Positions 13,261 through 64,000 of a DNA stretch of 64,000 nucleotides are shown piece by piece. Made by a program: the position numbers and the translations under genes. How positions within the stretch are numbered: the first letter of the stretch is position 1; every line of letters begins with the position of its first letter. This DNA is from Macrostomum lignano (lineage: Eukaryota): NCBI GenBank assembly GCA_002269645.1, contig NIVC01000087.1, positions 186,001-250,000 of the forward strand, given 5' to 3'. The notes beneath the pieces are model-generated. The model did no database searches and was not told the DNA's origin. It saw only the letters and a list, made by a program, of their open reading frames with translations.

Positions 13261-29779
<16,519 letters not shown>

Positions 29780-36795: not shown

Positions 36796-37414
36796 TGTGA
36801 CACTAGAGACTATCCAGTTTACTCTGTTGTCTGTTGGGCTCGCCCTCCGATCCTGTTTAGGGCTGGTTTTGTCCGGGTCGGGCTGGCTGCCTGAAGTGGT
36901 AAGGTGGGCTCAGGCAAGAAAATCTATAAATAGTGTAGCTAGTTCTAGGTTCTATTTCTAGATCTCCACGGCTCAGGGCTTGTCTTCTTACTCATGCTCG
37001 CAATCTGTTTACTCTTCGCTTCGATTGTTGTTTTTTGTCTCCAATGTGCCCTGGAGAATTAGTTAGAAAAGCTGTCTGTCTTTCTGTCTGTGTCTGTCTA
37101 ATCTCGCATTGTCTCGTCTCGTCTTGTCTGCGTCTATCCTTTTTTCGTGTACTTTTAGACTTTACTTTGAAGTAACATTTTTGGATTTTTTATCTTCAGG
37201 TGCTATATACGGCTCCCTAGAAATGTACTTAAAAATCGGTTAAGGATATCTTCCTAATGACTGCCTGCCTGTGCAGTGAATCAGATCACAGATACTGTAT
37301 ACCCTAGGTGGTTCACTTAATTGTTTTTATAGCAAAACTACTATATGGAAAATGCACATTATCATGTACCGATTATTTTTAGTATCCGTCTTGTCAGCAC
37401 TCAATTTATAAAGC

Positions 37415-40875: not shown

Positions 40876-41349
40876 TCAGTGAGGTAGCCAGCAAGTCTTT
40901 CGTCGACGGTGAATAGCGTATAAATGTCGACGAAGGGAAGGGCAAGAGAAAGGAAAAAGAGTATGGGCAACTACCGAACGAGAATAAAAATCGATAATTA
41001 TTAAAGCAAAGTTTCGGGAGCGCGTTGAGAGAATAAAAACAGCGTGGGTGCAGAAAAAATTGTGCGGCTGCAGACGATTTTGCGTGCGCATGATAGTGCT
41101 ATTAGTAGCACGACGAAAAAATGGAGGAAAAATTTGATAAACATAAGGGGCAAGATAATTTAAAGAGATAAAGTAATTTTTAAGCGCGGAAGTTAGCATT
41201 TGTGCTGAGGGGTCAACCGCATCATAGCCAGTTGGTTGCCATAGGTAACGCATAAAAGGGAGCAGTAGAGGCCAAGTGTCTTGGTTAAAGCGCATATACG
41301 ATTGAGGGATAGTAGAGGCAGAGAGTTGAAGAAAGTTGTCAATTGTCAT
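40876..41349 (-). CDS. Orphan ORF (157 aa, probably frameshifted onward) between LTRs
   Basis: ATG-initiated open frame with protein-like composition; no recognisable motif. Confidence 0.35.
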   Translation of the reverse strand: MTIDNFLQLSASTIPQSYMRFNQDTWPLLLPFMRYLWQPTGYDAVDPSAQMLTSALKNYFISLNYLAPYVYQIFPPFFRRATNSTIMRTQNRLQPHNFFCTHAVFILSTRSRNFALIIIDFYSRSVVAHTLFPFSCPSLRRHLYAIHRRRKTCWLPH

Positions 41350-41380
41350 AGTAGGAGAAAAAATGTATAATTGGTGGTAA

Positions 41381-42435
41381 TGATATGTTCCTTATTACCC
41401 GTCCTCAACTGTAATCAAGGAACAATCACTTCTAGCTCAATAGCTAGGCAACCCAGTAAGTCAACAGAAGGTATTCAATTACCTTGAGTCCTTAGGAGAT
41501 ATCTCGAAGTATAGCTCGTGTAGTTCTCGTCAATATCGTGTAGTCAGCTTCTGACTTGCGTTCGTAGATCGGGTCCGAGTCTTCTTTCTTCCTTAGAAAT
41601 AGTTCCGGTCGGAATCTGTCGTTCGGAGCAATAGGAAGCTTCCAATTTAACAATGGGATCCCTGCGCCAAACTGCGGTTTGAATTAAGCCTCCTTCTTCT
41701 AGCAGTGCCTCTATGCACTCTAGGTATAGCTCCGGAAACCACTGATAGTCTTCTAAGATCTATCAGGGGCAGTCCTTCTGGAGACTGCAACCAGTGGAGT
41801 CTAAACAGACTCAAGAGTCTCAACAGACTCAAACTAAACTCAAGTCACACTGGACTTGAGCGAGACGTCTCTAACAACAACGGACGCAAATAAGGAAGGC
41901 TTACCGCAACAACCGACCGAGTCTTGGTCCAGGAAGTCTGACTGTGGCTTCCTCTTCGGAGCTCTTCTCCTTCCGGAGGTATTGTGGCTCCGGGTCCGTT
42001 CCGGACCACTTGTATTTATAGGCAAATGGACCCTCATGATGTCACGTGGGTCCAACTCTTCAACTGTCAAAAGGTGTCACGGTTTGGTTGCTGTCAAACA
42101 TGGCAGGTTAGAAAGTTACTCCATTGGTTTAGTGTAAAAACGCGTGATTGGTTATCGCATTCGAGTTATTTTTAGTTACATTTGATTGGTTCACGTGCGT
42201 ACGGTTGAATGATACATTTCTCCTGGGGTTTGAGTTTGACAAGTGCAGGTTACACGTGATTGGGTGATTTCTAAGTTTAGCATGCTCGAGGTCTCTTTCT
42301 TCCTATTGGTTAGTCCGAATATACAAAGTTCAAAGCATACCTTTATTCATACTCTTCAATTTACTACTAAATAAAATGTGCTAGTAGTACATTAACACTT
42401 TTATGTCTTCTTTACGGGAGGTAGAACACTCTACA
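41381..42435 (-). mobile_element. Family-A LTR variant with a replaced U3 region
   Basis: Homologous to the other copies from 41381 to the TATA box (about 42020) and in the terminal ~25 bp (CGGGAGGTAGAACACTCTACA); unrelated in between. Confidence 0.8.
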
Positions 42436-42880
42436 TGGAGTCTAAACAGACTCAAGAGTCTCAACAGACCCAAATAGACTTAAGTCACACTAGACTTGAG
42501 CGAGACGTCTCTAACACAACGGGCGCAAATCAGGAAAGCTTACCGCAACAATTCGACCGAGTCTCGATTGACTTGGTGATCAGGAAGTCCTCCTAAGGCT
42601 TCCTCTTCGGAGCTTCTCCTCTCGTCGGGAGTTGGCTCCTGGTCCGCTTCGGACCGCTTGTATTTATAGGCAACTTTTTGATCCAAAATAGCATCATGAC
42701 AATTCACGTGTTGCGCTAAAAAGGGGAAAATGGCTCATGGCGTATTATTTTGGTTACATCTTTTCTTGGTAACGTAATTCATTCAAAGCTAAGGCGCACA
42801 TGCGTGTACTTACTTACTTATAGTAGCATTATACGATTATCTTCTTTTTACCTTTTTAACGGGAGGTAGAACACTCTACA
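42436..42880 (-). mobile_element. Partial family-A 3' LTR with polypurine tract at about 42881-42897
   Basis: Starts mid-LTR (TGGAGTCTAAACAG) and ends ...CTCTACA; preceded on the minus strand by AAAAAAGGGAG. Confidence 0.85.
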
Positions 42881-43104: not shown

Positions 43105-43711
43105 TCAGCCGAAGTTTGTCCTGAGCAGGCTGCTCACCTGATGTGCGGTTCGCGCCACCAGGGATGCCACTGCCCAGTACAGCGACTGAAACTTAGTGAA
43201 TCGCGGATCCTCGGTCCGCTCCAGCAAAAGCAGATAGGCCTCTATGGTCGTAAGTGGTTCTTCTGCACGCACCATAGTCCTGGCGATGTCTAGCAGCCAC
43301 CGCCAGTCGGCCTGATGCTGAAGCGGCCATGGCCACGTTCTTACGGCGACGGCCAGCTGCTCCAGGGTTAGCGCGTCAGCTCTGGGACAGCGAACATCGG
43401 CGCCAGCAGCACAGACGCTGTGTTGGACAGCGGAGCCAGACACACGGTGCACGTCATGATGTCACGTGCCCCGTACCGCTGAAGGCAGCTGAAACACACC
43501 CAATGCCGATTCGAACAGATTTGTACATTGGGCTGGTCACCGCAGAGGGCGCATTGGACCCGCGGCCTGCGACAGACCGGGCAGGCGGAAAGAATCGTCA
43601 CCTCGCCAATTTCTCCAGCCCGTTCGTCGCAGGGGAAGCACACCATTCACAAGTCGGGAGCATCGGCTCCCGTGCCTCGAGGCAGCAAGGGCAGGTATCC
43701 ATCTCGGCCAT
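43105..43711 (-). pseudogene. Accessory double-RING gene B, frameshifted copy
   Basis: Near-identical to 50607-51239 but split over ORFs 43598-43783, 43368-43646 and 43105-43452. Confidence 0.85.
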
Positions 43712-43789
43712 CTGTGGGCGATAGGTATAGGTATAGTTAGAACGATTGAGGATTATTTGAGATACGTAACAAGCATAAAGCATATGTTT

Positions 43790-44329
43790 TACTGGTGAGA
43801 CCTAAAAAGCCAAATAAAATAGCCTCGTGAGAGAAGTAATCGTTTAAGCGCGTGGCAGTATACGTGTAGCGTCCAGTGAAAGGTTTCATAGTCATGCAAA
43901 AACTGCAGTAAATGTCGTTCAATCTCCAAGGGTGACATATGACGCAAAAATCCTTGATTTCTATGAGCGTATAATCCGACACCATTTCTTAAAAGTGCTT
44001 TCGCGGGGCATACTATTACATAAGGGGCATCCTATAATGCCCCTACTAGCGGTTTGCTTCAAACAGTGCATGCAAATAAAATGTCCGTGGTTACAGTATT
44101 GAAACGTGCGCCAAGAATAACAATAGGCGCATTGTCGCAAACTACCTCTACAGAGGGGACAATTCTGCCATGGCTGAATATAATGAGAATTGCTTAAACA
44201 TTGTCCGCAAACTTTATGGTCATTGATGCAAATAGTCGATGGCTTGACAGCCAAGTCATCAGTTAAACATATCGGGCAGTCATATAGCTGCTGAGGTTGG
44301 GGCGCCTGTTTCGACAGTGCGTTGCCCAT
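43790..44329 (-). pseudogene. Accessory double-RING gene A (MGNALSK), both RINGs intact, C-terminal deletion/frameshift
   Basis: ORF 43961-44341 nearly identical to 51357-51977 over the first ~125 aa. Confidence 0.85.
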
Positions 44330-44470
44330 AATTGTCGTCACTTGTAGTCTTGTAGTCTTAAGTCGCTCGGATTAGTCGCCTCTTACGACAAGCTTGCGAA
44401 GCTGTAGAGCTATTCTGACCCGGTCTCTACACGGGTTTGTTCTCGAAACTGCCACTGCCACTGCCCAGTA

Positions 44471-45031
44471 CTACGGCTGAAACCGTACGAAGCGAGGGTC
44501 CTCCGTCCGCTCCAGCAGCTGCAAGTAGGCGTCGATGGCGGTGAGACCGGGTTGATGTCTCGCCAGGTCTCTAGCTATGTCAAGCAAATGCCGCCACGCC
44601 GTCTGATGCTGGAGCGGCCACGGCCATGACCGCACAGCGATCGCCAGCTGCTCCAAGGTTAGGAGGTCCGGTTCGGTGAGCGACAACTCCGGCACTACCG
44701 CCATAGTAGCCAGCAGCAGTGCCGTGGAATGCATCACCGGCTCCAGACACACGGTGCACGTTTGGATATCTCGTGCACCGTACCTATGGAGACAGCCGGC
44801 ACAGGCCCAGTGCCGACTTGGACAGATTTGGTACTGGGGCTGCTCGCCGCACAATGCACATGTGACCCTCGCCCTGCGACATGTTGGGCACGCCGACAGC
44901 ATGGTGATCTCGCCGGTCAGCTGTCGGGCCGCGGTGTCGCAAGAGAGACACACTTGGTGTCCCCATTCGCATGTCGGGACCGTTTCGTCCCGCGTCTCCA
45001 AGCAGCAGGGGCATGCGTCGTCAGCGTTCAT
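44471..45031 (-). CDS. Diverged accessory double-RING gene B' (186 aa, C-terminally truncated)
   Basis: All 16 putative zinc ligands conserved relative to gene B; CCCACAG directly before the ATG. Confidence 0.8.
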   Translation of the reverse strand: MNADDACPCCLETRDETVPTCEWGHQVCLSCDTAARQLTGEITMLSACPTCRRARVTCALCGEQPQYQICPSRHWACAGCLHRYGARDIQTCTVCLEPVMHSTALLLATMAVVPELSLTEPDLLTLEQLAIAVRSWPWPLQHQTAWRHLLDIARDLARHQPGLTAIDAYLQLLERTEDPRFVRFQP

Positions 45032-45099
45032 CTGTGGGTTGTAGGGTCATGATTTATTAGTACATCCTTCATAGTGCTTGCATTTGTGCGTAACAGAGC

Positions 45100-45761
45100 T
45101 CATTGTGGAAACCGTAGAAGCCATATGAAGTAATTGCGTGATAAAATAAGCTGTTTTAACGCATGACAATAAATATGCAGTGTCCAATGATAGGCGTTAT
45201 GGGCTTGTAAAGTATTTTGCAAATGCCGTGCTATCTCGAGGGGTAGCATATGTCGTAATATGCCCGGATGATTATGTGCGTAAAGAATCAATTCGTAGCG
45301 CGAGCGCTGAGCACAACGGGGTACTGGCCAAAACTCCAGCAACCGTTCTATACTCATGGCTGTCAGGGTATGAATATTATATACAGATAAACAGCGTGAT
45401 ACGTCCGGCTTTATGCGACACCACTTCTTGAAAGTGCTGTCCGTCGGCATGGTGTTACAGACAGGGCACCCTATGATGCCTCTGCTAGCGGTGCGTTTCA
45501 AGCACTGCATGCAGATAAAATGATTGTGACGACAGTATTGAAAGGTGCGCCATGAGTAACAATAGGCGCACTGCGTCAGACTACTCCTACATAGGGGGTA
45601 GAGTTGCCAAGATTGAATATAATGCGCGTCACGTAAGCATGTTCCACAGATGCGATGATTATTTATACAAATGGTTGGTGGCTTTATCCACAAATCTTCT
45701 TCCAGACAGACAGGGCATGTTGCTGTACTTGGGGCGCCTGCTTGGACAGTGCGTTGCCCAT
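45100..45761 (-). CDS. Diverged accessory double-RING gene A' (MGNALSK start at 45761; one frameshift near 45715)
   Basis: ORF 45100-45693 gives both RINGs and the full C-terminus; the upstream frame gives MGNALSKQAPQVQQ, and CPVCLEEDLWIKPP follows after the shift. Confidence 0.75.
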
Positions 45762-45849
45762 TGTCGGCGTTGCTTGAAGTTGAAGTCGCTCAGATTAGTC
45801 GCCTCTTACGACAAGCTTGCGAAGCTGTAGAGCTATTCTGACCCGGTCT

Positions 45850-46125
45850 CTACACGGGTTTTGTCTTTTTTTGTAGCTTAACGAGGTCGCAGATTTTAGC
45901 CGTGTGGCTGGCTCTCGTTCGCCGTTTGAGTCTCCTCGTTCTTCGTTGCGATGTGGCGGTTCGTTGAACGTGTGCGATCAGCGTTGTTGCGTGGTTGCGT
46001 GACGAACTTTTGAATGGACGTCGGGACTTCCACATATTGCGATGGCAGTAGTTGCTGTGCCAATAGGTTTGGTGGCTGGAAGTCTCGTCCAAACATTAGA
46101 AAGAATGGCGTATTGTCCGTTCGTT
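45850..46125 (-). pseudogene. Deleted integrase C-terminal fragment of family A
   Basis: Matches 52090-52220 and 52500-52620 (MFGRDFQPPNLLAQQLLPSQYVEVPTSIQKFVTQ joined to NADRTRSTNRHIATK). Confidence 0.85.
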
Positions 46126-47337: not shown

Positions 47338-48292
47338 TTAGGGGGAGGGAATAAGGTAATTAAGGCGACCACCGTATGCGGAGGCAATCCAAGCGTCGGA
47401 CCAGCCAGCGGTAGTCGCGGGGTGAACCGTTTTCCGCGACACGAGTGATTTGCCTTCGAGATTGGGGCAAGGGGAATCGCTGACGTCAAAACAGGGGTCG
47501 TCGACGAACTCAGGGTGACCAACAATGTGTTCCCGATGAAACCGGGGAAGGGTGAGGAAGTAGGCTTCAATGGCCTGACCCCTAGGACTGCCGCGATGGC
47601 GCGTCCAGAAGTGCGACCAGAAGTGGTGGCGGAGTTGGTGTGAGGCAAGGTTAAACAGGCTCGAGGGTGAGTCGGAAACGGGGGAAACAAAGCTCTGGAG
47701 CAATTGGTCGTAGCGTTCACACTCCGAGTCATTAATTTTGTGACAGTATATTTGGCGGAGATATTTGTAGGTAAGAGGACCGGCGGTGTGAAAATCGACG
47801 CAACGCAGAGTGCGGAAGAGTACCTCGAAGTACTGGCGTTGAATGGCTAATTCGACGATTACGGACTTAAAGGCTCCTCGCAGGGGTGGGATATGGAGGC
47901 CCTCGAGGTGGAATAGCATATTCTATCTGCCCCGAAGTGGTCGACCAGAAGTGGTGGCGGAGTTGGTGTGAGGCAAGGTTAAACAGGCTCGAGGGTGAGT
48001 CGGAAACGGGGGGAACAAAGCTCTGGAGCAATTGATCATATCGTTCACATTCCATGTCATCGAGTTTGTTACGGTACACTCGGCGGAGATATTCGTAGTT
48101 GAGAGGATTGGCGGTGTGGAAATTGACACAACGCAGTGTGCGGAAGAGCACCTCGAACTCCTGGCGGTGGATGGCTAGCTCGACGATAGCAGACTTAAAG
48201 GTTCCTCGCAGGGGTGGGGTATGGAGGCCCTCGAGGTGGAATAGAATATTGTCTATCTGTCCCGGGATGTAGCATTGGCAGCTGTAGGAATC
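47338..48292 (-). CDS. 3' part of orphan ORF C, containing a diverged ~330-bp internal duplication
   Basis: ORFs 47867-48151 and 47338-47919 repeat FHLEGLH.PPLRG.FKS.IVELAI...HQLRHHFWS. Confidence 0.6.
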
Positions 48293-48296
48293 GTGG

Positions 48297-49166
48297 TGAT
48301 GTGTTCCTTATTACCCGACTTTCGATAATCAAGGAACAATCACTTCTAGCTCAATAGCTAGGCAACCCAGTAAGTCAATTAAAGGTACTTCTTACCTTGA
48401 CGTCGCTTGCAGATATCTCTTCTGTAGTCTTCGAGTAGATCTCGCTTGGATCTCTATGTGATCTCGTAGATCAGGCGCCTTGATTCTTCAGTTGCTCTGG
48501 TCCTGGTTCCTCTTGTACTTCCGATAAGTTCCTCCGGCCGGTATCTTCAGTCAGGACCAATCAGAGGCCTCGTATTAACAATGGGTACCCTGCGCCGAAC
48601 TGCAGTTTGAATTAAGCCTCCTTCTTTTAGTAGTGCCTCGATGCACTCTAGGTATAGCTTCGGAAACCACTGATAGTCCTCTAAGATCTATCAGGGGCAG
48701 TCCTTCTGGAGACTGCAACCAATGGAGTCTAAACAGACTCAAGAGTCTCAACAGACTCAAATAGACTCAAGTCTCAATAGACTTGAGCGAGACGTCTCTA
48801 ACACAACGGGCGCAAATAAGGAAGGCTTACCGCGACGACTCGACCGAGTCTCGATTGACTTGGTATATCAGGAAGTCCTCCTAAGGCTTCCTCTTCGGAG
48901 CTTCTCCTCTCGTCGGGAGTTGGCTCCTGGTCCGCTTCGGACCGCTTGTATTTATAGGCAAGTTTTTGGTCCGGAATAGTATCATGACAATCCACGTGTT
49001 GCGCTAAAAGGGGAAATGGCTCATTGCGTATCATTTTGGTAACATCTTCTTCTGGTAGCGCAATTCATTCAAAGCTTAGGCGCGCATGCGTGCACTTACT
49101 TACTTGTAGTAGCATTATACGATTATCTTCTTTTAACCTTTTTAACGGGAGGTAGAACACTCTACA
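48297..49166 (-). repeat. Family-A 3' LTR (outer)
   Basis: Near-identical to 56340-57209. Confidence 0.95.
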
Positions 49167-49510
49167 AAATCTCCCTTTTTTACGAAAAAACTCGTCCCGA
49201 GTTTTAACAATGAAACAAGAAAATCGGTTGAGTAAATTTTTGTTCACCTTATACGTAAGACTATTTATATTTTTACTCGTAGCGTAATTGCACGTTAATA
49301 AGGGTTAGTACTGTTAAGTCTTTGTACAGTTCCTTGGCCGTTACATCGGGAATACCTGTCGTCCTCGCGTTGCTGCCGAGGCATTCAGCCGAAGCTTGTC
49401 CTGAGCAGGCTGCTCACCTGATGTGCGGTTCGCGCCACCAGCGATGCCACTGCCCAGTACAGCGACTGAAACTTAGTGAATCGCGGATCCTCGGTCCGCT
49501 CCAGCAAAAG

Positions 49511-50363
49511 TGATGTTTTCCTTATTACCTGACTTTCGATAATCAAGGAACAATCACTTCTAGCTCAGCAGCTAGGCAACCCAGTAACTCAACAGAAGGT
49601 ATTCAATTACCTTGAGTCCTTTGGAGATCTCTCGGAGTAGTTCTCGATTTGCTTTAGTTGCAGGTGTAGTCACTTCTGACTTTCGTTTGTAGATCGGGTC
49701 CGATTCTTCTTTCTTCTTCAAATAGTTCCGGCCGGATTCTGTCGCTCGGACCAATGGGAAGCTTCCGAATTAACAATGGGATCCCTGCGCCGAACTGCGG
49801 TCTAAATTAAGCCTCCTTCTTCTAGCAGTGCCTCTATGCACTCTAGGTATAGCTTCGGAAACCACTGATAGTCCTCTAAGATCTATCAGGGGCAGTCCTT
49901 CTGGAGACTGCAACCAATGGAGTCTAAACAGACTCAAGAGTCTCAACAGACTCAAATAGACTCAAGTCTCAATAGACTTGAGCGAGACGTCTCTAACACA
50001 ACGGCGCAAATAAGGAAGGCTTACCGCGACGACTCGACCGAGTCTCGATTGACTTGGTATATCAGGAAGTCCTCCTAAGGCTTCCTCTTCGGAGCGCTCC
50101 TCTTCCGTGGGGAGAATGGCTCCGGTACCGCTTCAGATCGCTTGTATTTATAGGCAACTTTTTGTTCCAAAATAGCATCATTACAATTCTTGTGTTGCGC
50201 TAAAAGGGGAAAATGGCTCATGGCGTATTATTCTGGTAACATCTTTTTCTGGTAGCGTGATTCATTCAAAGCTTAGGCGCACATGCGTGTACTTACTTAC
50301 TTGTAGTAGCATTATACGATTATCTTCTTTTTTTTGTTTTTGCGGGAGGCAGAACACTCTACA
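49511..50363 (-). repeat. Family-A 3' LTR (inner), positioned inside a remnant of gene B
   Basis: The left flank 49340-49510 is the 3' end of gene B; a PPT lies on its upstream side. Confidence 0.92.
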
Positions 50364-50606
50364 AAATCTCCTTTTTTTACGAAAAAAACTCGTCCCGAGT
50401 TTTAACAATGAAATAAAAATCTTGGGTAATTGAATTATTCCACACTTTAACTTTAAATTGGTTACATAATTCTCTTTATTAACATATATGCACGTAATAT
50501 ACATTGTGTGTTAATAAAGGTTAGTGGTGTTGAGTCCGCGCTCAGTTAAAGTTAATCATATCTTCTGCCGGGGATACCTGCTGTCCTCGCGCTGCTGCCG
50601 AGGCAT

Positions 50607-51239
50607 TCAGCCGAAGCTTGTCCTGAGCAGGCTGCTCACCTGATGTGCGGTTCGCGCCACCAGGGATGCCACTGCCCAGTACAGCGACTGAAACTTAGTG
50701 AATCGCGGATCCTCGGTCCGCTCCAGCAAAAGCAGATAGGCCTCTATGGTCGTAAGCGGTTCTGCTGTACGCACCATAGTCCTGGCGATGTCTAGCAGCC
50801 ACCGCCAGTCGGCCTGATGCTGAAGCGGCCATGGCCACGTTCGTACGGCGACGGCCAGCTGTTCCAGGGTTAGCTCATCCGGCTCCGCCAGCGTCAGCTC
50901 CGGTACGGCGAGCATCGGCGCCAGTAGTACGGATGCTGTGTTGGACAGCGGAGCCAGGCACACGGTGCACGTCATGATGTCTCGTGCACCGTACCGCTGA
51001 AGACAGCTGAAACACACCCAATGCCGATTTGAACAGAGTCGTACATTGGGCTGGTCGCCGCAAAGGGCACATTGGACCCGCGGTCTGCGACAGACGGGGC
51101 AGGCGGTAAGGATCGTCACGTCGCCAATTTCTCGCGCCCGCCCGTCGCAGGGGAAGCACTCCTGGTGCCCCCATTCACAAGTCGGGAGCATCGGCTCCCG
51201 TGCCTCGAGGCAGCAGGGGCAGGTATCCATCTCGGTCAT
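50607..51239 (-). CDS. Accessory gene B: tandem double RING-finger protein with helical C-terminus (210 aa, intact)
   Basis: RING1 C-x2-C-x10-C-x3-H-x2-C-x2-C-x15-C-x2-C; 6-aa linker; RING2 C-x2-C-x8-C-x3-H-x2-C-x2-C-x11-C-x2-C. Confidence 0.88.
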   Translation of the reverse strand: MTEMDTCPCCLEAREPMLPTCEWGHQECFPCDGRAREIGDVTILTACPVCRRPRVQCALCGDQPNVRLCSNRHWVCFSCLQRYGARDIMTCTVCLAPLSNTASVLLAPMLAVPELTLAEPDELTLEQLAVAVRTWPWPLQHQADWRWLLDIARTMVRTAEPLTTIEAYLLLLERTEDPRFTKFQSLYWAVASLVARTAHQVSSLLRTSFG

Positions 51240-51309
51240 CTGTGGGCGATAGGTATAGGTATAGTTAGAACGATTGAGGATTATTCAAGATACGTAACAA
51301 GCATATGTT

Positions 51310-51965
51310 CTATCGGTGAGACCTAAAAAGCCAAATAAAATAGCTACGTGAGAGCACTAATCGTTTAAGCGCGTGGCAGTATACGTGTAGCGTCCAGTGA
51401 AATGATTCATGGTCATGCAAAAACTGCCGCAACTGTCGCTCAATCTCCAAGGGTGACATATGACGCAAAAATCCTTGATTTCTATGAGCGTATAAGAGTA
51501 GCTCGTCGCGACCGCTGAACGAAGCGAGGTACTGGCCAAAACTTCGATACTCATAGCGGTTAAGGTGTGCATAATGTAAACGGATAAACAACGCGCTGGG
51601 TCAGGTATAATACGACACCATTTCTTAAAAGTGTTTTCGCGGGGCATACTGTTACATAAGGGGCATCCTATAATGCCCCTACTAGCGGTTTGCTTCAAAC
51701 AGTGCATGCAAATAAAATGTTGATGGTTACAATATTGAAACGTGCGCCAAGAATAACAATAGGCGCATTGTCGCAAACTATCTCTACAGAGGGGACAATT
51801 CTGCCATGGCTGAATATAGTGTGAATCACTTAAACATTGTCCGCAAACTTTATGTCCATTGATGCAAATAGTCGGTGGCTTGACAGCCAAGTCATCAGTT
51901 AAACATATCGGGCAGTCATATAGCTGCTGAGGCTGGGGCGCCTGTTTTGACAGTGCGTTGCCCAT
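51310..51965 (-). CDS. Accessory gene A: putative N-myristoylated tandem double RING-finger protein (frameshift near 51535)
   Basis: MGNALSK; RING1 C-x2-C-x12-C-x3-H-x2-C-x2-C-x12-C-x2-C; 6-aa linker; RING2 with the same spacing as in gene B. The C-terminus continues in ORF 51310-51591, matching A'. Confidence 0.85.
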
Positions 51966-52085
51966 AATTGTCGTCAATTTGTCGCTGTCTTTGTGTCGCT
52001 CGGATTAGTCGCCTTTTACGACAAGCTTGCGAAGCTGTAGTGCTATTCTTTATCCCGGTCACTACACGGGGTTGTTCTCGAAACT

Positions 52086-55000
52086 CTAGCGTGGTCGTAG
52101 GTTGTAGCCATGTGGCTGGCTCACATCTGTCGTTTGAGTCTCCTCGTGCTTCGTCGCGATGTGGCGGTTCGTTGATCGCGTGCGATTAGCGTTGTCTAGT
52201 GTCGGTAGAAACGTCGCTGTGTCAGTGTTGATCTTCTTTAGTCGATGAATGTGTACGTAGAACTGGTGCTGATGTGGATCTTGTACATTAGCCAGGCGTG
52301 CCGTTGTCGGTGACGTTAGTTGGACCACTCGATGGGGTCCTTTATACTTCTGTGCATGTTTATGCGTCTGCTGCGGCGGGTAGTGTAGGTAAACGATGTC
52401 GCCGGCCGTCAGGGTTGTCGATCTCGCGTCGTTGCCGGTGGTCAGAGCCACCTGGTTGTCAATGTTGTGCTTAGCGATCTTCCATGCGAGGTGTAGTTGC
52501 GTGACGAATTTCTGAATGGAAGTCGGTACTTCCACGTACTGCGATGGTAGCAATTGCTGTGCGAGCAGATTCGGCGGTTGGAAGTCTCGTCCAAACATTA
52601 GGAAGAATGGCGTATTGTCCGTTGATCGATGAATAGCGCTGTTGTAGGCCATTGTTACAGATTGCAGGTAGATGATCCAGTCTTCCGGCTGTTGGTGCGC
52701 GAAATGTGTAATCATGTCGTGCAGGTTGCGGTGAAACCGTTCAACCATGTTTGCCTTCGGATTGTAGGTCGATGTGTAGATCTGCGTAATGTTGAGAATC
52801 CTTACGACTTGCTGAAACAGTTGCGATGTAAACTGCGATCCGTTGTCCGATGTGAGGTTCTTCGGCGTGCCGTACTTGCAAATGATTTCGTTGAAGAAAC
52901 TCATTGCCACTGTCTGAGCTGTGATGTCCGGTATCGGTATGGCGATAGCAAACTTCGAGAAGATATCCAAGGCGGTTAGAATGTAGGTGTAGGCGATGCC
53001 CTGGAGACAGCTCGGTGGCAGTGGTCCGGTGATGTCGATGCTTAGACAGTCCATTGTAGTCGACTTCGGAATGGACTGTAGCTGCGGTTTCTGTCGTCGT
53101 CCTGTCTTTGATGCAGCACATGAATGGCAGTTGTTGCAATACTGCTTGATGTCGCCATACATAGTTGGCCAAAAGTAGTATTGTTCCACTCTCGCGATGG
53201 TCTTTGCGGCCGACAGGTGTCCAGCTAGTGGGTTGTCGTGCAGCTCGTTGAGAATTGCTTGCCGAAACGAATATGTTACGTAGATCTTAGGTTTATTGTC
53301 GCTCATCCAGTAGAGCCGTGACTTATTGATTGTTAGGTGTTGTCGTTGCTTGCGTAGGAATTTTCGTTCCATGGGACTGAGTTTGATGTTCTTGTCGTCG
53401 TCTTTAACCGCTTGGTAGAAGTTGTCGCGCTCGGTTTCATCCACCAACTCCTTGATGTTAGGGATTGGATGAATGGCGTTGACTTCATAGGCTCTTGACA
53501 GGGCGTCCGCGGCTTTGTTGGTAATTCCTGGTTTGTAGACGAGTTTGTAGTTGTAATCCTGGATCTTGAGTGTCATCCTGATGAGTCGGTTGTTGGTCTG
53601 TAGTGTAATCTTCTTTGGTTTCGTCTGGTTTGTCTTGAAGTAGCTGCATTTGATGTCGGTTGGTATCTTGTAGATCATCGGTTGGATATGCGCATCCGTT
53701 GGACAAATCATTGGCTTTTCCGTTGCCGTTGCTTTGGCGACTACTGCTATCAGTAGTATCACGATGATCCAGTATAGCCAGTTTTTCCACTTTTTGGACC
53801 TTGCCGTTGTCTTTGCTGGCATTGGCCGCGATCGCCATTCGTTATCTTCCATGTCCGCATCATATCCTTCCGGTTGTTCCATTGGCTGTTTCAGGCGGAA
53901 GGCTTCTGATTCGCTTTGCTTTTTGGTTATTTCAGTATCTTCGTCTGCAGCTTCTTCCGATGTTTCTGTTGTTTCACTCCATTGCGTTTGGTATCTTTTC
54001 TCTGTCTTGTAGTCGACCGTTTGAATATAGGCTTCACCATTTCGTTTGTATCGGATCTCGTAGCATTCGTCGCTGTCGGAACTCGGCTTTTCTTTTATCT
54101 GTTCTTCTTCCATTTCTTCATCTTTCCATTGTATTTCGTAGCCTTGATCGCTGTCGGAGCTTAGATTTTCCGCTCCCAGTTCTTCCTGCATTCCTTCTTC
54201 GGCTCGGTATCCGCTCGTGTCATCATGCACCTCGCAGTCGTGATCGTTGCCGTAACTTATACATTCTTCTTCTTCCTTCATTTCTTTGTCTTTCGTGCTT
54301 GTTTTGTCGTCATCCACTGTTGTCGATTCATAGTTGTTTTCTCTGCCAGTCTTCATCTTTTCTTCGTTGCCGGTGTCGCTCTCCGCCTCCTCCCTTTTCT
54401 TGTGATTTACTTTCTTCCTGTTTTCTCTGCTGTCTCCGGTGGTCTCTTTTAATTTGATCATTTCGGTTTCATTCGTCTCTTCTGTCTTGTCAGTGTTGTC
54501 CTCGTGCGTTGTCTTTTTTTCGATCAGGCTGATGTCAAGTTCCGGGACTGTGAAGTCCATTTCCAAGTCGTCAATTGTGAACACTTGCTGTTCCTGCTGC
54601 TCATTTTCCGGTGTGTACGTGATGGCATTCGCGTATCGTGGCATTGCTTGCGTCGGCTGTCTTTGTGTGTACCTGACGTTGCGTGGCCTGTAGCCATTAT
54701 TTCTGAAGCGGCCTTCGTTTCCGAAGCGGCCATCATTTCCGGAGCGGTCATTATTTCCGAAGCGTCTATCATTTCCGAGGCGTCTCATGCCTTGTTGTTG
54801 GCGATTTTGATACTGCTGCCATGGTTTCTGCGGCTTCTGATTGTTGAATATCTGTCGCGGCTTGTCGTATCTTGTTGACCAATGAGGACAATTAATCTGA
54901 TAATGTCCTTCTTGTCCGCAGTAGTAACATCTGGCTGAGGCTTGTTCATTTCGTCTTTTTTGTTCGGCGATAGCAGCTGTCTGGTGCTGCATTAATTTGT

Positions 55001-55118
55001 TTAATTGCTGCGTCAGTTTCTGCACTTCATTGTTGCCTGTCGTCATTAATGGGGCACTGGCTTCCCATTGCATTCCGCAACGCAAAAGGTCTTCTTCGGT
55101 TTCGATATTTTCACGCAA
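52086..55118 (-). CDS. Gag C-terminus (CCHC) - acidic linker - hydrophobic segment - [PR/RT/RNaseH deleted] - integrase
   Basis: CYYCGQEGHYQINC; WLYWIIVILLIAVVAKATA; RNase H tail YKPGITNKAADALSR; HHCC (ELHDNPLAGH...CNNCHSC); SIDITG, TSDNGSQF, MVERFHR; KYKGPHRV. No DTG/DSG protease and no YxDD motif. Confidence 0.9.
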   Translation of the reverse strand: MRENIETEEDLLRCGMQWEASAPLMTTGNNEVQKLTQQLNKLMQHQTAAIAEQKRRNEQASARCYYCGQEGHYQINCPHWSTRYDKPRQIFNNQKPQKPWQQYQNRQQQGMRRLGNDRRFGNNDRSGNDGRFGNEGRFRNNGYRPRNVRYTQRQPTQAMPRYANAITYTPENEQQEQQVFTIDDLEMDFTVPELDISLIEKKTTHEDNTDKTEETNETEMIKLKETTGDSRENRKKVNHKKREEAESDTGNEEKMKTGRENNYESTTVDDDKTSTKDKEMKEEEECISYGNDHDCEVHDDTSGYRAEEGMQEELGAENLSSDSDQGYEIQWKDEEMEEEQIKEKPSSDSDECYEIRYKRNGEAYIQTVDYKTEKRYQTQWSETTETSEEAADEDTEITKKQSESEAFRLKQPMEQPEGYDADMEDNEWRSRPMPAKTTARSKKWKNWLYWIIVILLIAVVAKATATEKPMICPTDAHIQPMIYKIPTDIKCSYFKTNQTKPKKITLQTNNRLIRMTLKIQDYNYKLVYKPGITNKAADALSRAYEVNAIHPIPNIKELVDETERDNFYQAVKDDDKNIKLSPMERKFLRKQRQHLTINKSRLYWMSDNKPKIYVTYSFRQAILNELHDNPLAGHLSAAKTIARVEQYYFWPTMYGDIKQYCNNCHSCAASKTGRRQKPQLQSIPKSTTMDCLSIDITGPLPPSCLQGIAYTYILTALDIFSKFAIAIPIPDITAQTVAMSFFNEIICKYGTPKNLTSDNGSQFTSQLFQQVVRILNITQIYTSTYNPKANMVERFHRNLHDMITHFAHQQPEDWIIYLQSVTMAYNSAIHRSTDNTPFFLMFGRDFQPPNLLAQQLLPSQYVEVPTSIQKFVTQLHLAWKIAKHNIDNQVALTTGNDARSTTLTAGDIVYLHYPPQQTHKHAQKYKGPHRVVQLTSPTTARLANVQDPHQHQFYVHIHRLKKINTDTATFLPTLDNANRTRSTNRHIATKHEETQTTDVSQPHGYNLRPR

Positions 55119-55122
55119 AAGT

Positions 55123-55572
55123 CTATCCGAAGTGACGGCTGTGCGTTTTTATTACGTGCAAGATGAGGTTTTGTTCGCGATCCATCAATCGCTGTCTTTC
55201 TCTGGCGGCCAATTCTGCCGCTCCCAGTGGCGGTTGGTCCGCCGCTTGCAGCGGTGGCTGATGCAGTGCCTTAATTATCTGGCGGATATCGTCCACAAAG
55301 GCGAGGAAGGATTCTGTTGCTTGCATCCTTCTGTTATGTAACTTGTGCAGCAGCACTGATCTGTTTGTGCCGCAACGGTTGAAATGCGCGCGCAGTTGAA
55401 TGATTAGTGCTGGATAATTTTGCTGTGTTGCTGCATCCAGCTTGCCGTAAATTTCTCGCGCAGTACCTTGGAGAAGAGGTGGCAGCAGCTGTGCCTTCTC
55501 TGGATTTTGTAGGTTGTATTCCCTACATACCAGGTCAAAATGGTCGACGAATGTGTTAAAATCTTTCTCCAT
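55123..55572 (-). CDS. Gag N-terminal/capsid region of family A
   Basis: DFNTFVDHFDLVCREYNL...LLPPLLQGTAREIY...; homologous to the gag at 60702-61487. Confidence 0.8.
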   Translation of the reverse strand: MEKDFNTFVDHFDLVCREYNLQNPEKAQLLPPLLQGTAREIYGKLDAATQQNYPALIIQLRAHFNRCGTNRSVLLHKLHNRRMQATESFLAFVDDIRQIIKALHQPPLQAADQPPLGAAELAARERQRLMDREQNLILHVIKTHSRHFG

Positions 55573-56339
55573 CGAGAAAGTACCGACCGTTTCTTTGATG
55601 TCTCTGTGTACCGTTGGATTGCGCCGCCCATGTTGTTGATAGGATAGAACGGTAGTTCAGATCTGGATCGATTTGTAACGGATCGTCCAGTGTGGTGTTT
55701 GCCTCGGAATAAACCTCGACTGTAACGAATTGCCTTGTGGTGTCGATTTGTTATTCGCTGGCCTCGGATGCGGTGTGGCTTGCTGCCACTGGTTGTCCTC
55801 AAATGAACTTGTTCTGTTCGCTTGCTGATTTCGCACTTATGCGGCGTCCCGCAAAGTGTATCTTCAAGTTGGGATGGACTTGTCTTTTGCTTTGCAAAGG
55901 CTTTTTCTCGTCTGTGATTCTCTCTCTTTGTCAATTAACTCCGCTCTTCACGAAGTTTCAATTAATTTCGGTTTGTTTTAGTTTTTGTGCCGGCAAAGTG
56001 TTTCAGTTATTTTTTGTTTGTTTTGCGTCGACGATTTTTATTTTCGGTTTGTTTTCAGTGTACCGATGAATTTAATTTCGGTTTATTTTAAACTCACACT
56101 TGCTCGAGCTCGTCAAAACAAAAATTTAACACGCGTGCTCAAACTGTACTCAAATTGGACAGGTGCTCAAACCTGTACACCAAATTTTTACTCGAGTTTC
56201 ACAACGTACGGACTTAAAAAGTGTTAACTCTAACACGTGCGCGCAAAATTAATGAAGTCGCTCTGTCGTCACGTTACAATAGCTTGATCAGGGCTATTGC
56301 TCAAAGTTTGAGTAGTGCCGAGAGGGCGAGATCACCAAT

Positions 56340-57209
56340 TGATGTGTTCCTTATTACCCGACTTTCGATAATCAAGGAACAATCACTTCTAGCTCAATAG
56401 CTAGGCAACCCAGTAAGTCAATTAAAGGTACTTCTTACCTTGACGTCGCTTGCAGATATCTCTTCTGTAGTCTTCGAGTAGATCTCGCTTGGATCTCTAT
56501 GTGATCTCGTAGATCAGGCGCCTTGATTCTTCAGTTGCTCTGGTCCTGGTTCCTCTTGTACTTCCGATAAGTTCCTCCGGCCGGTATCTTCAGTCAGGAC
56601 CAATCAGAGGCCTCGTATTAACAATGGGTACCCTGCGCCGAACTGCGGTTTGAATTAAGCCTCCTTCTTCTAGTAGTGCCTCGATGCACTCTAGGTATAG
56701 CTCCGGAAACCACTGATAGTCCTCTAAGATCTATCAGGGGCAGTCCTTCTGGAGACTGCAACCAATGGAGTCTAAACAGACTCAAGAGTCTCAACAGACT
56801 CAAATAGACTCAAGTCTCAATAGACTTGAGCGAGACGTCTCTAACACAACGGGCGCAAATAAGGAAGGCTTACCGCAACAACTCGACCGAGTCTCGATTG
56901 ACTTGGTGATCAGGAAGTCCTCCTAAGGCTTCCTCTACGGAGCTTCTCCTCTCGTCGGGAGTTGGCTCCTGGTCCGCTTCGGACCGCTTGTATTTATAGG
57001 CAAGTTTTTGGTCCGGAATAGTATTATGACAATCCACGTGTTGCGCTAAAAGGGGAAATGGCTCATTGCGTATCATTTTGGTAACATCTTCTTCTGGTAG
57101 CGCAATTCATTCAAAGCTTAGGCGCGCATGCGTGTACTTACTTACTTGTAGTAGCATTATACGATTATCTTCTTTTAACCTTTTTTAACGGGAGGTAGAA
57201 CACTCTACA
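56340..57209 (-). repeat. Family-A 5' LTR (TATA at about 56991-56998, splice donor at 56438)
   Basis: Followed on the minus strand by AT plus a TGG-starting PBS. Confidence 0.95.
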
Positions 57210-57482
57210 GCGGTTCAGGTAGGACTCAGCAATGGTGAAGGTGAAGTCGGCTACGACATCGAAGCGTCCGTCACAATTGAAGAGATCATAAAGTAGAGAA
57301 TCAGGAATAGCAGGCTTAACAGTGCGAGGACACGGAAAGGGCGAAAGATAGGAGGGGTGATAATAAATGAAGTTACGACGATGTGGGCAATAGTACGTTT
57401 CACACAGGTAGTTGAATAACGGAGTATCATCAAAAGCAGTAAGGCCCTGGATGGCGATGCGCATTTGCCTGAATATGTTCAT
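57210..57482 (-). CDS. 5' part (91 codons) of orphan ORF C, interrupted by the 48297-57209 insertion
   Basis: Joins in frame to 48292 when the insertion and one TSD copy are removed. Confidence 0.7.
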
Positions 57483-57751
57483 GTTTAAATTAGAGTAAAC
57501 GATTAAAAGTATTTACTGTATTATGAAGTTTCCGAGACGTCAAAAGCTGGATGTGCGGAGTGTCGGTCCTGCAAGTAGTTTCGATGACGCTGAAGAAATG
57601 ATTAACCAAATGATGCTGAATTCTGTAGAATTTGTAATAGTGCAAAGAGTGCCAGTAGGATAATGCAGAGGATGATATAGTCGGGAAGGAGTTGGGGGCA
57701 GTGTTGGAAGCGTGTTCATTGGTTAGTTAGGGAATTCTGAACTATGCCTGA

Positions 57752-57986
57752 TGATGTGTTCCTTATTACCCGACTTCGATAATCAAGGAACAATAACTTC
57801 TAGCTCAGTAGCTAGGCAACCCAGAAGGTATTCATTTACCTTGAGTCCTTATGAAGTGTCTCTTCAATGTCGATCTCGGGTAAATCTCGTCTGTAGTCTC
57901 TTGTGACTGTCGTTCGTAGTTCAGGTCCGAGTCTTCTTTCCTTCTTCAAATAGTTCCAGCCGGATTCTGTTGCTCGGACCAATGGG
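57752..57986 (-). mobile_element. Truncated family-A LTR (U5 end)
   Basis: Homologous to the first ~235 bp of the other copies. Confidence 0.85.
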
Positions 57987-60021: not shown

Positions 60022-60681
60022 TGATGTGTTCCTTATTACCAGTCCTTTGATAATCGAGGAACAATCACTTCTAGCTCGGTAGCTAGGCAACCCAGTTATC
60101 AGACAAAGGTACTTCTTACCTTGACTTGCTTCTTCTTCGGAGTACTCCTTGAATTTCTGTAGATCTCGCTTTGATCTCTGTGTGATCTCTTAGATCGGGC
60201 GCCTTAGTTCCTCTACTGCTTCTGGTCCTGGTTCCTTTGTATTTCGCTTGTCGTTACTTCCGGCCGGTATCTGCAGTCAGGACCAATCAAAGGCTTCGTA
60301 TCAACAATGGGTACCCTGCGCCTAATAGCGGTATCAGTTAAGCCTTCTTCTAGCAGTGCCTTGATGCACTCTAGGTAATGCTCCGGATATCTCTAGTAGC
60401 TCCTCTAAGATCTGCTAGGGTAGTCCTTCGGGCGACTACTGCCAAGGGAGTCTAAACAGACTCAAGAGTCTCCACAGACTCAAATAGACTCAAGACACAA
60501 TAAACTTGAGCGAGACGTCTCAACAACAACTGGCGCATATAAGAAAGGCTTACCGCAACACTTGATCAAGTCTTTCGTTCGACTGGTGAATCAGGGAGTC
60601 TTCCTAAAGACACCCTCTTCGGAGCTTCTCCTATCGTCGGGAGTTGGCTCCGGTGCCGCGTTGGGCCTCTTGTATTTATAG
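60022..60681 (-). mobile_element. Diverged family-A LTR, truncated just beyond the TATA box
   Basis: TGATGTGTTCCTTATTACC start, homologous blocks, ends at TGTATTTATAG. Confidence 0.85.
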
Positions 60682-61487
60682 ACTTCTTCACCCTGACTCA
60701 CTTGAAAGGCATCGACCAACTGCATGACTTCCGTTCCTTCACTAAAGAGTTCGACTTGATCACACGCTCGTTTGGACTATCGGAGAACGCAAAGATTCGG
60801 CTCTTCCCGCGACTACTGAACGACCTTCTTAAACTCGAGTACAGCCGCCTTTCTGCCGCGGTCCAAGCCTCCTATCCAGCCACCATTGAGGCACTATCTC
60901 AACGCCTTCGAGAAGTAACCATTGGTTCGGCTCTAACGCTGCATAATGCAGCAACCCGGAAGCAGCAGTACCGCGAACCGTTCCTGCCCTACTTCACCGA
61001 CATCCGTCAAAAGCTCCGGTCAGCTATGCCGGAAATACCTGAAGAATTTCCGGAGGGTGCCGGTCCAGAAACACCACCCGCGAACCAAGCCGTAATCGAC
61101 CAGCGCAACCGAGACTTCCTTGCTACCCTAATGGCTACGACTATCAACAATGCACTGCCCTACATCAAACGAGAACTCTTAAAGCAAAATATCACCACGG
61201 AAAGTACTCTAATTAACAAGGCCATCCGCGCTGAACAAATCCGCGACTCCACCATGGACTCTGATGGCACTGACTTGAAGGCTCTGACTGAGCGCCTAAC
61301 AACCCTAGAGAAAACGACGAAGGAAGCCAATCAACAGGTAGTTGCCTCTCTGCAAACACAAACCAAGCCACTCACTGCTAATATGCAACAAAAGCCGACT
61401 TGTTGTCATTGCGGTCGACCTGGACATTATGCCGCCGACTGTCGTCGAAGGAATGACCAACAACCTCGTCCTTTCCGACCTAACTAA
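60682..61487 (+). CDS. 5'-truncated Gypsy gag (capsid-like + CCHC), opposite orientation
   Basis: DFRSFTKEFDLITRSFGL...; CCHCGRPGHYAADC; homologous to the family-A gag. Confidence 0.8.
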
Positions 61488-61559: not shown

Positions 61560-64000
61560 TTGACTTACTTGACTTAGCTGCAGGGCGGTCCGAAGACGCA
61601 GCGGGGAGGCGAGCGTCGCCCATTCCGCTAATCCCTGAAAGACCCGCATAGGCTAGGGCGCGGGGCCGGTCAGGGAGGTCTGCCGGTCCTGTCTGCAGCG
61701 TTGTCTTCGGTGGGGAAGACGGAGGCTCGCTTGGTGGCCCGGAGGAACCGGATGAGCCGTGGATGTTCTCGGGCCGGCAAACGTCGTCCAGGGACGGGTT
61801 GGGCCCGAGGTGGTTGAGCCGGTCTCGGTTGAAGGCCGGGCAGTAGCAGACGAAGTGCTTGGCGTCTTCGTTCTCGAGGTTGCAGAAAGGGCAGAGTTCA
61901 CTCCGGCGAACACATCGGAGGAAGCAGTGCCTGGCAAAGCAACCGTGACCTGTGAAGGTCATAGTGAGAGCGCGGATATCTTTTCGATTTTGATTCAAAA
62001 GGATTCTCCGCAGCTTGAGGGACGGATTGGGCACTGCCGCACGAGATTGGCGGCAGTTGGAGATGCCATCCCATCTGCGCAAGTGCAGGATGTCCGCCCA
62101 GTCGTTAATCTGACGATTAATGACTGGCGGGGATGGGGGCCAGGGGCACGGGGCCAAGGAGCGAGCCGGAACAGCCCGCCTTAGCGAGGGAGTCGGCGAG
62201 CTCGTTACCTTTGAAGCCGGCATGTCCTGGGATCCACGTGAGCCGGACGGTGTTCCTCCGAGCCAGCTTGTTGAGCTGCCCGATACAGTCGCGGACTGTT
62301 CGGGAGTTCGTAGTGGTGTGACACAGGGCCTATAAAGCGGCCTGGCTGTCAGAGTGGAAGAAGATTCTTCTGTCCTTGAAGTCCTTGCAGTGGAGCTCAG
62401 CTGCACAGGAGCTGATGGCAAGGACTTCATTCTGGAAGACGCTGGAGAGTCTGCCAGTGTGTTGGGCGTGAGTAGCAATCACGCGGCCGTTGATAAGGAT
62501 ACAGACTCCAAAGCCGGATAAACCGTCTTTGGAGGATCCGTCAGTGAAGCAGTGAACCTCCTGAGGGGCCCAGCTGTCGTTGGCGTTCTCCCTGGAGGGG
62601 ATAGTGACCTTGAAGCGTTGGTAGAGATTGAGGGAGCGCGGTTCAGCGTCCGAAAGGACAGCCGCACTCCCACTCTCCTCCAGAACTTTAAGGCACAGGT
62701 CAGAGTGCGGCAGGAGCTTGCGCTTCGCCATCGCTCTTTGTGGCTTGAAGCTAGCGCCAGCCTCGATGAGCCGGCGGGTGGTTTTAGCAGCCTCGCGACG
62801 GACAAAGATGTCCAGAGGCGGGAGGCAAAGAAAGGCGTTGAGGCCGTCAAAGGGAGCAGAGAGCGGGGCATTCAGGATCATGCGGCACGCACGTCCCTGC
62901 ACCTTTTTGAGGGCTTCGTGGCAGGTTTTAATCTGCAAGGCGCTGGTCCAGACCAGGCCGGCGTAAGTAACGGCCGGTCGGACCATTGCGGTATAGATCC
63001 ACCAGAGCCGCTTTGGGGTGAGGCCCCAGGTGGTGCCGACGGCTCTGCGCAGCTGCGCAAGAATCGCGAGGGCTTTTTTGGTTTTGGCCTGGACGTGGGT
63101 GGACCAGCTCAGCCGGTGGTCCAGCGTAACGCCGAGACACTTGGTTTGCTTGCAGGATGGAATTTCCACCCCGTAAAGCTTTAGTGGGCGAATACGCCAG
63201 TTTACCCTGCTGGTGAACATGATCGCGACAGTTTTGGTCTCGGAGAGCCTGAGGCCGCACCTGTCCGCCCAACGTTCAGCAGAGCGAATGAAGTTTTGCA
63301 AAAGATCTCTAAGGGTTTCAGGTGACGGTCCGGATGCCACGGCTGTGACATCATCGGCGTAACCGACCTTGAGGATGGGGTCAAGATGGCTGTCCTGGAG
63401 GAGCTCATCGATGACCATGTTCCAGAGAACTGGAGAGAGGACACCGCCCTGGGGGCTGCCTTTGCAGACGGTTACCGTCCGTTGGTGGCCCAACAGGTGT
63501 GCGGTGGCAGTACGGTGGCTGATCATATACATGATCCACCGGGTGAGGTGCGAGTGGGTTCCTCTAGCACGTAGAGCTCTGTCAAAAGCCTCAAAGAGGA
63601 CATTATCAAAGGCTCCAACAATGTCGAGGAAGACAGCGAGAGCGTAGCCATTACCAAGAACGGCTTTCTCCAGCATGTCAACCAGAACGTGAAGCGCGCT
63701 CTCCGTGGACCTGCCTGCCCGAAAGGCATGCTGGTTCTCACTGAGCGGCTTGTTCTTCAGTTCCACAGAGAGGAGGCGCCAGAGCACCAGTCTCTCTAAC
63801 AGCTTCACCAATGAGGAGGTGAGGCTAATTGGTCTGAAGGATTTAATGGACCGGTAGTCCGGTCGGCCAGGCTTGGGGATAAAGACCACCTTGGCCTCGG
63901 TCCAGGGTTTCGGAACAAAGCCGAGAACAATGCAAGCTTTCAGAAGCCGGCAAAGGTTCCGCAGGAAACCGGTGCATTTCACCGCCTCCCGCAGGAAGGC
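61560..64000 (-). mobile_element. Non-LTR retrotransposon with RT + RNase H + C-terminal zinc finger (Loa/Lian-like), continues beyond the window
   Basis: RPISLTSSLVKLLERL, FLDIVGAFDNV, GSPQGGVLSPVLW, YADD, CLGVTLD; RNase H FTDGS...QNEVLAI...SDSQAAL; CPFCNLENEDAKHFVCYC; short-repeat 3' tail near 61560-61578. Confidence 0.92.

Follow-up and report, generated by a model that had tools for sequence, protein, structure and literature searches.

A stretch of 64,000 nucleotides (nt) from Macrostomum lignano (assembly GCA_002269645.1, contig NIVC01000087.1, positions 186,001 to 250,000), hereafter the window, carries a long terminal repeat (LTR) retroelement that its sequence identifies as a Ty3/Gypsy errantivirus of the order gag-env-pol, followed behind pol by two tandem genes, A and B, which encode double RING-like proteins. 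Positions are those of the window, and genes and motifs lie on its minus strand unless otherwise stated. The protein of gene B is likely made from a subgenomic mRNA in which a donor in the 5' LTR would be joined to a CCCACAG acceptor abutting the start codon, and this acceptor is, judged by its conservation, the strongest part of the case for splicing. An original prediction, made from the letters of the window, had proposed that the accessory proteins are made from spliced mRNAs that skip gag-pol, as in complex retroviruses. The proposal holds as far as the acceptor of gene B is concerned, which the sequence supports, whereas the donor that it named, here D2, has a rival structural role and a rival donor, D1, and the putative acceptor for gene A is weak; the part skipped would be gag-env-pol instead.

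The acceptor before gene B

Gene B (50607–51239) is an open frame of 210 amino acids (aa) with a double RING-like domain and a helical C-terminal domain. Two further copies are present in the window, the diverged B' (44471–45031; 186 aa, 118/185 residues identical to B) and the frameshift-broken B'' (43105–43740 including its acceptor, G at 43712). All three are preceded by CTAAY-N17-CCCACAG|ATG, that is, a branch-point-like CTAAC in B (51240–51268) or CTAAT in B' (45032–45060), a 17-nt spacer and a CCCACAG that abuts the start codon (at 51240, 45032 and 43712, respectively), where none is expected from 100 shuffles; the abutting acceptor motif that had been reported is thereby confirmed. Since the B and B'' stretches are about 88% identical, the independent comparison is that of B with B', which have diverged to about 1.1 synonymous substitutions per site (dS) and are identical at 29/55 fourfold sites. 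At the same spacing and with no gap, they share all seven positions of the acceptor (-7 to -1), 6/8 positions of the branch region, 7/17 of the spacer and 0/8 further upstream. The chance of 13 identical positions out of 15 at the neutral rate is 0.007, for stretches picked after the motif had been seen.

Among the 110 sense-strand ATGs of the element, one is directly preceded by YAG plus a branch-like motif, namely that of gene B, and YAG sites with a CTRAY branch and no intervening AG number 2/185 in the element and 1/40 in the A'B' region. As the third gene on the RNA, B is out of reach for scanning ribosomes, and start codons prefer a purine at -3; at the B start codon this base is C in unspliced RNA, A after joining to D2 and G after joining to D1. 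The sequence evidence supports use of the gene B acceptor by the spliceosome.

Candidate donors in the long terminal repeats

By self-comparison, the region 39924–60681 contains eight minus-strand LTR copies of one family; the 3' end is retained in seven. In the 5' LTR of the element (56340–57209; 870 nt, TG...CA), a TATA box (56993–56998) lies within the invariant CTATAAATACAAG, and transcription would start about 30 nt after it, at about 56965. Two candidate donors follow. The first, D1 (GCG|GTAAGC, 56868–56876, GT at 56873–56872), was absent from the original prediction; it lies about 90 nt after the putative start, is preceded by a stretch in which only 10% of positions are invariant, and as G|GTAAGC agrees with GTRAG, a motif kept in 7/7 LTRs that hold this part. 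The second, D2 (TCAAG|GTAAG, 56425–56443, first G of the GT at 56438), was correctly described as conserved: TCAAG|GTAA is found in all seven LTR 3' ends, 88–102 nt from the LTR end, with none expected from 100 shuffles and a +5 base that is G in three copies, T in three and A in one. Two of these seven copies are 99% identical, so at most six are independent.

The remaining copies comprise a second LTR (49511–50363; D1 at 50024, D2 at 49610), which is 84% identical to the 5' LTR and stands behind gene B and the polypurine tract; the 3' LTR matching the 5' LTR (48297–49166; 99% identical, D1 at 48830, D2 at 48395), preceded by a duplicate of the 3' end of B (49167–49510); a solo LTR with a 4-nt target duplication, ATAT (39924–40774; D1 at 40447, D2 at 40023); two partial LTRs that retain everything between the TATA box and the 3' end (41381–42025, D1 at 41904, D2 at 41482; 60022–60681, D1 at 60553, D2 at 60119); an LTR ending before D2 (42435–42880; D1 at 42543); and an LTR 3' fragment (57752–57986; D2 at 57839). 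According to the simplest reading, a relative would have inserted into gene B, with subsequent recombination. Two LTRs (42025–42435 and 60681) are alike from the TATA box on, their upstream part being different or absent, which suggests U3 swapping.

The surroundings of D2 had been called highly variable, which applies to the upstream side, where 0/20 positions are invariant at -25 to -6 and the invariant run begins sharply at -5, and not to the downstream side, where 53–77% of positions are invariant per 30-nt segment. Here D2 opens a conserved, structured LTR 3' block, and in 7/7 copies it forms one side, the 5' arm, of the inverted repeat AAGGTA-N5/6-TACCTT, whose stem is invariant in all seven and whose loop, into which the invariant +4 A of D2 falls, varies. 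The block folds better than shuffles in 3/3 copies tested (z -3.6, -2.5 and -2.7), and 0/28 pairs are compensatory, in an automatic alignment whose register is off near D2. For D1, a surrounding hairpin was unsupported (z +1.95).

Because D2 belongs to a structured and conserved block, the fact that it is conserved does not count as separate evidence for splicing. A regulated site would look like this, with the donor covered by a complementary stretch of its own; as a donor, D2 is nonetheless, on its sequence, weaker than had been claimed, and D1 is the better match. The placement of D2 in U5 is putative, as it depends on the position of the poly(A) site. Of poly(A)-like hexamers, AATAAG alone is conserved within the transcribed LTR, where it stands about 16 nt from the end in 7/7 LTR 3' ends.

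The block before gene A

Gene A (51357–51965), also double RING-like, has a frame broken near 51545, with homology to A' continuing to about 51310. The diverged A' (45100–45761) has a frame broken near its start, and A'' is shortened (43961–44440 together with its block). The conserved block that had been reported before the A genes (51995–52072 before A, 45785–45860 before A') is real, being present in 3/3 copies with 69/76 positions identical between A and A', which is only slightly more conserved than the neighbouring integrase tail (93/110). Its CTACAG (AG ending at 52035 before A), however, lies upstream of GACTAAT in 3/3 blocks, an order in which the two cannot serve a single intron as its acceptor and its branch point. 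The CTACAG fits YTNCAG, the top trans-acceptor motif of the host (PMC8629364; this and most other papers cited by PMC identifier were available in part, and statements about them refer to that part), and has no conserved branch motif upstream of it, while the AGs that follow GACTAAT shift in position and are mostly AAG. A structured block resembling an internal ribosome entry site was rejected, as the folding of the A block does not surpass that of shuffles (z -0.7, -0.5 and -0.06).

Contigs of sequencing runs and the automated gene model

A search for sequencing runs listed 24, of which 20 contained part of the A–B stretch and none was recorded as RNA. The contigs of four were examined, namely X1, X2 and X6, guessed to be RNA, and X16, whose RNA status is not known; the check for junctions in RNA therefore refers to contigs of guessed or unrecorded RNA status. 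Among the 15 of 40 joints listed for the contigs of these four runs there was no joint between a donor and an acceptor, contig building being a step that drops rare forms, and among the 24 of 244 loose ends listed there was no loose end or end capped with a spliced leader (SL) at the acceptors. One X1 contig departs from the reference at 52005, right after the GACTAA of the A block, and continues for at least 255 unrelated bases, pointing either to truncation of that copy or to another gene downstream.

The best profile match of B and B', to which it is near-identical, is UniRef A0A1I8G201, a gene model of M. lignano from this locus or a near-identical copy. The model joins D2 to B and D1 to B', uses the B'' acceptor, and also joins D1 to an LTR-internal AG before D2. 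It shows that an automated predictor accepts these sites, and is a prediction rather than RNA evidence.

Proposed expression and its alternatives

In the scheme proposed here, unspliced RNA, which would also serve as the genome, would be scanned through its leader and translated into Gag-Env-Pol. This fits the leader (55632–56965; 1334 nt from the putative start to the gag ATG), which contains no ATG against 15.4 expected (P ~2e-7), ATG being by far the most depleted trinucleotide; the 708-nt part beyond the LTR end likewise has none against 8.2 expected, and either candidate first exon stays ATG-free. A fraction of the RNA would be spliced to the B acceptor from D1 (exon 1 of about 90 nt, slightly preferred), from D2, or from D1 and then D2, with D2 predicted to be dampened by the hairpin to which it belongs. 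Such splicing would remove the primer-binding site (PBS) together with gag-env-pol (in the present copy with its deletion, 5.6 or 5.2 kb) and would exchange the C at -3 of the B start codon for a purine. Gene A would be reached via a weaker acceptor in its upstream block, either the CTACAG or an AG 15–23 nt after GACTAAT. We regard cis-splicing from an LTR donor to the gene B acceptor as about evenly balanced between being right and being wrong. A TTACAG at 55720, 89 nt before the gag ATG, also fits YTNCAG in one copy only, and is a possible acceptor for a gag-env-pol mRNA that would lack the PBS.

Several observations weigh against cis-splicing. In 4/4 runs, contigs continue unspliced across the B acceptor (X1 51143–51611, X2 51143–51489, X6 50424–51681, X16 51186–51489), which shows that the unspliced form exists, weighs mildly against dominant splicing in those samples and is compatible with a minor junction. 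The gene model A0A1I8G201 is automated, shows small differences from the window and fuses several copies, which gives a single protein that is implausible, and the A block offers no single conserved pair of branch point and acceptor. D2 agrees with GTRAG, the top donor motif of the host (PMC8629364), in only 3/7 copies, and its core is predicted to be mostly paired in 7/7 (stem probability 0.43–1.0). Finally, about half of the LTR is invariant regardless (345 invariant columns, compared with 657 positions counted from the TATA box onward, in five copies, with 19 runs of at least 6 nt), so that conservation of an LTR donor would by itself prove little.

SL trans-splicing, named as an alternative in the original prediction, would resolve A and B from an LTR or internal transcript in the manner of a host operon. 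The gaps of 120 nt between pol and A and of 68–70 nt between A and B are in keeping with it, as are the CTACAG of the A block in 3/3 copies and the example of Cer1, whose 2.4-kb spliced accessory mRNA occurs with or without SL1 (PMC3315495). We nevertheless consider it rather unlikely, though a real alternative in this host: the B acceptor, CCACAG, does not fit YTNCAG (0/3), a motif that is enriched and not obligatory; trans-splicing is favoured where no donor lies upstream (cited in PMC8629364), yet cis donors are conserved upstream here; and there is no conserved poly(A) signal between the genes, AATAAA occurring before B' only.

Equally doubtful is expression without splicing. Here an internal promoter, or reinitiation on RNA that stays unspliced, would yield A and B; the A block would act as promoter or RNA element; and D2 would be retained for the structure of the LTR end, as needed for packaging, 3'-end formation or reverse transcription. 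Left unexplained would be the branch point, AG and spacing that are conserved before B, as well as D1 and the +4 A in the loop of D2, and neither the folding of the A block nor the covariation count in the LTR block lends it support, even though the stable fold of the LTR 3' block with its invariant D2 stem and varying loop, the unspliced contigs and the movement of the A block with A'' as a module are what it would lead one to expect. Precedents exist in the accessory open reading frames (ORFs) of the MDG1 group, which are carried on unspliced RNA (PMC11952523), and in the internal promoter of foamy viruses (PMC3694450). It is highly improbable that the LTR donor serves mainly as a landing site for the U1 small nuclear ribonucleoprotein to repress poly(A) addition within the 5' LTR, splicing to B being minor or from the other donor, since adding the downstream leader leaves the predicted pairing of D2 unchanged, despite the location of D2 about 83 nt upstream of AATAAG, a hairpin 3' arm complementary to the donor core, and the same order in foamy viruses, in which the major donor lies in R, is masked by structure and is used together with RNA structure to control polyadenylation (PMC3694450).

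The double-RING proteins

The products of genes A and B are paralogous (E 3e-12) and contain two C3HC4 fingers each, with 14 Cys/His columns invariant across eight sequences. Ratios of non-synonymous to synonymous substitution (dN/dS) of 0.26 for B vs B' and 0.19 for A vs A'' point to purifying selection, and on this ground both genes are, or recently were, functional. The C3HC4 pattern, here present twice per protein, likens them to RING-HC E3 ligases and viral RING proteins, and from this motif they are predicted to be E3 ubiquitin ligases. They differ in that Pfam RING matches (E 0.002–0.03) stay under the curated cut-offs and that fold searches with the B structure model (pLDDT 76.7) gave no match reaching E 0.001, the best Foldseek rows being RING domains (E 0.086 in PDB, 0.028 among viral structures); the best result of a VIA fold search (Z 8.1) was a generic helical bundle. 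All three A genes start with MGNALS (51945–51965, 45741–45761 and 44309–44329), an instance of the MGxxxS myristoylation motif placed before the RING fingers. Such a start ahead of a RING, a further likeness to viral RING proteins, brings to mind Z, the RING protein of arenaviruses; Foldseek rows for arenavirus Z against the B model were not significant.

A search of 1.84 billion representative sequences returned seven matches at E 0.001, consisting of the M. lignano gene model, four Logan proteins and two marginal ones. The four Logan relatives (P0088–P0091; E 1e-27 to 1e-14) are 130–214 aa long, derive from contigs of 994–2070 nt, are all unnamed, and represent the only clear distant relatives with the tandem RING and helical domain. 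Word-based protein searches yielded no relatives of A or B and an exact look-up 0/4; viral contigs contained no relatives of B or of the integrase part, metagenome contigs none for the A alignment, and the ESM Atlas only leads below 0.9. The second cassette, A'-B'-A''-B'', occupies 45761–43105, and the joint from which it was built (52085 to 50667) is seen in contigs of 3/4 runs, so that it is no assembly artefact. The AATAAA in the 3' untranslated region of B is absent from the two other copies.

Identity of the element

TG...CA LTR ends, a PBS and a polypurine tract, the criteria for Ty3/Gypsy elements (Metaviridae), are all present. The PBS (56326–56337) reads TGGTGATCTCGC, and its reverse complement GCGAGATCACCA is the one listed for Mlig_errantivirus_2. 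The N-terminal part of gag (55123–55631) is frameshift-broken in this copy and is followed by a long open frame of 1020 codons (52086–55148) that runs from the gag C-terminus to integrase and includes a zinc knuckle, an acidic spacer, a hydrophobic signal-peptide-like segment, the start of an env-like gene, an internal deletion with its junction at 53601/53602, the end of RNase H, and integrase. The last of these (Integrase_H2C2, E 2.5e-20; rve, E 2.8e-14) stands at the end of the frame, as in the Ty3/Gypsy order protease–reverse transcriptase–RNase H–integrase; reverse transcriptase itself is deleted from this copy. The database protein P0002, a relative, aligns to both sides of the deletion and carries between these matches a Monjiviricetes fusion-protein domain (PF24664, E 1.3e-4, a weak match below cut-off) and then a protease, upstream of the integrase tail. 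Because this relative has the env-like match followed by the protease, and because a polyprotein of Bursaphelenchus is colinear with it, the family can be assigned to gag-env-pol, the env-like gene lying between gag and protease as in GAG-ENV-POL errantiviruses with a class III (HSV/gB-type) env.

The element is probably the published Mlig_errantivirus_2, for which 16 intact copies, LTRs of 863–864 nt and a 12-nt PBS are reported (PMC13524379). The two share the host, an identical PBS, a similar LTR length (870 nt here) and an env between gag and pol; the assignment draws on host, PBS and LTR length, and the copy studied here differs in being internally deleted. In the main text of PMC13524379 the terms 'RING', 'splic' and 'accessory' have no match, so that, as far as that text goes, double-RING genes and splice signals are undescribed there. 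Four motifs were not found in the available supplements of PMC12801592, whose sequence archive covers only six other families. Rfam gave two matches over 39000–61000, both at chance level, and no ribozyme or known RNA element in that interval.

Relation to known systems

With gene B spliced from an LTR donor, the locus would, by analogy, most likely work like Cer1 and foamy viruses. Cer1 of Caenorhabditis elegans, with its CERV protein, is likewise a Ty3/Gypsy element with a 3' accessory region expressed from a spliced mRNA, the Cer1 genomic RNA skipping the splice sites (PMC3315495, PMC10309623). It differs in that CERV shares gag exons, is not described as RING-like in the available text and has no obvious homologues beyond nematodes, whereas the element of M. 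lignano has separate ORFs past the pol stop, a putative acceptor at the ATG and candidate donors in the LTR. Foamy viruses resemble it in a structure-masked major donor located in the LTR upstream of the PBS and in their 3' accessory genes (PMC3694450); in contrast, they are true retroviruses that express the accessory genes largely from an internal promoter, and the available text of PMC3694450 mentions no RING genes. LTR elements of bdelloid rotifers also bear additional ORFs 3' of pol, for which expression from spliced messages is said to be typical (PMC5408684), although these third ORFs are env-like or other captured genes and 'RING' has no match in the text of PMC5408684.

Spliced accessory mRNAs, known from Cer1 and retroviruses, and gag-env-pol errantiviruses in M. 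lignano have thus been reported before, and the mechanism is not new. What appears to be undescribed is that double-RING genes in tandem, kept by purifying selection, lie behind pol and that the LTR holds candidate donors: the listings of literature searches and the available text of PMC13524379 contained no description of a RING cargo or of LTR donors, its figures and sequence files being material that may bear on the matter. If the reading proposed here is true, an invertebrate retroelement would carry genes for likely E3 ligases of its own, and this in a model animal for which transgenesis and deep RNA data exist, where the balance between spliced and genomic RNA and a counter-defence against the host would be directly testable. 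A more far-reaching and speculative possibility, to which we give little credence, is that an errantivirus has independently evolved the plan of a complex retrovirus, with a Gag-Env-Pol polyprotein from unspliced RNA and a cassette, able to expand, of ubiquitin ligases that belong to the element itself, one of them possibly myristoylated and membrane-bound. This cassette would be activated through regulated use of LTR donors that hairpins mask, or else be resolved in the way of a host operon by trans-splicing of the SL, and would act against silencing by the host or in budding.

Other content of the window

The LTRs are flanked by ORFs with no Pfam match (3/3 tested; 57165–57512, 40876–41391 and 47338–48307), one of which is tandemly duplicated (47605–48264), and seem to be inserted in an array of genes on the same strand. 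Outside the element, an 18-bp unit is repeated about 290 times in an array (18456–23900) that shows a strong strand skew and is open in several frames. An isolated ORF fragment of a protein kinase (24175–24837, minus strand; Pkinase, E 7e-35) is presumably S6-kinase-like. Judged by translation, a Gypsy-type polyprotein (4364–7633, minus strand) is flanked by 95%-identical repeats (2179–2534 and 8858–9216), and the other retroelements comprise two non-LTR elements and an opposite-strand gag (34087–36894, plus strand; 62330–64000, minus strand; 60543–61487, plus strand).

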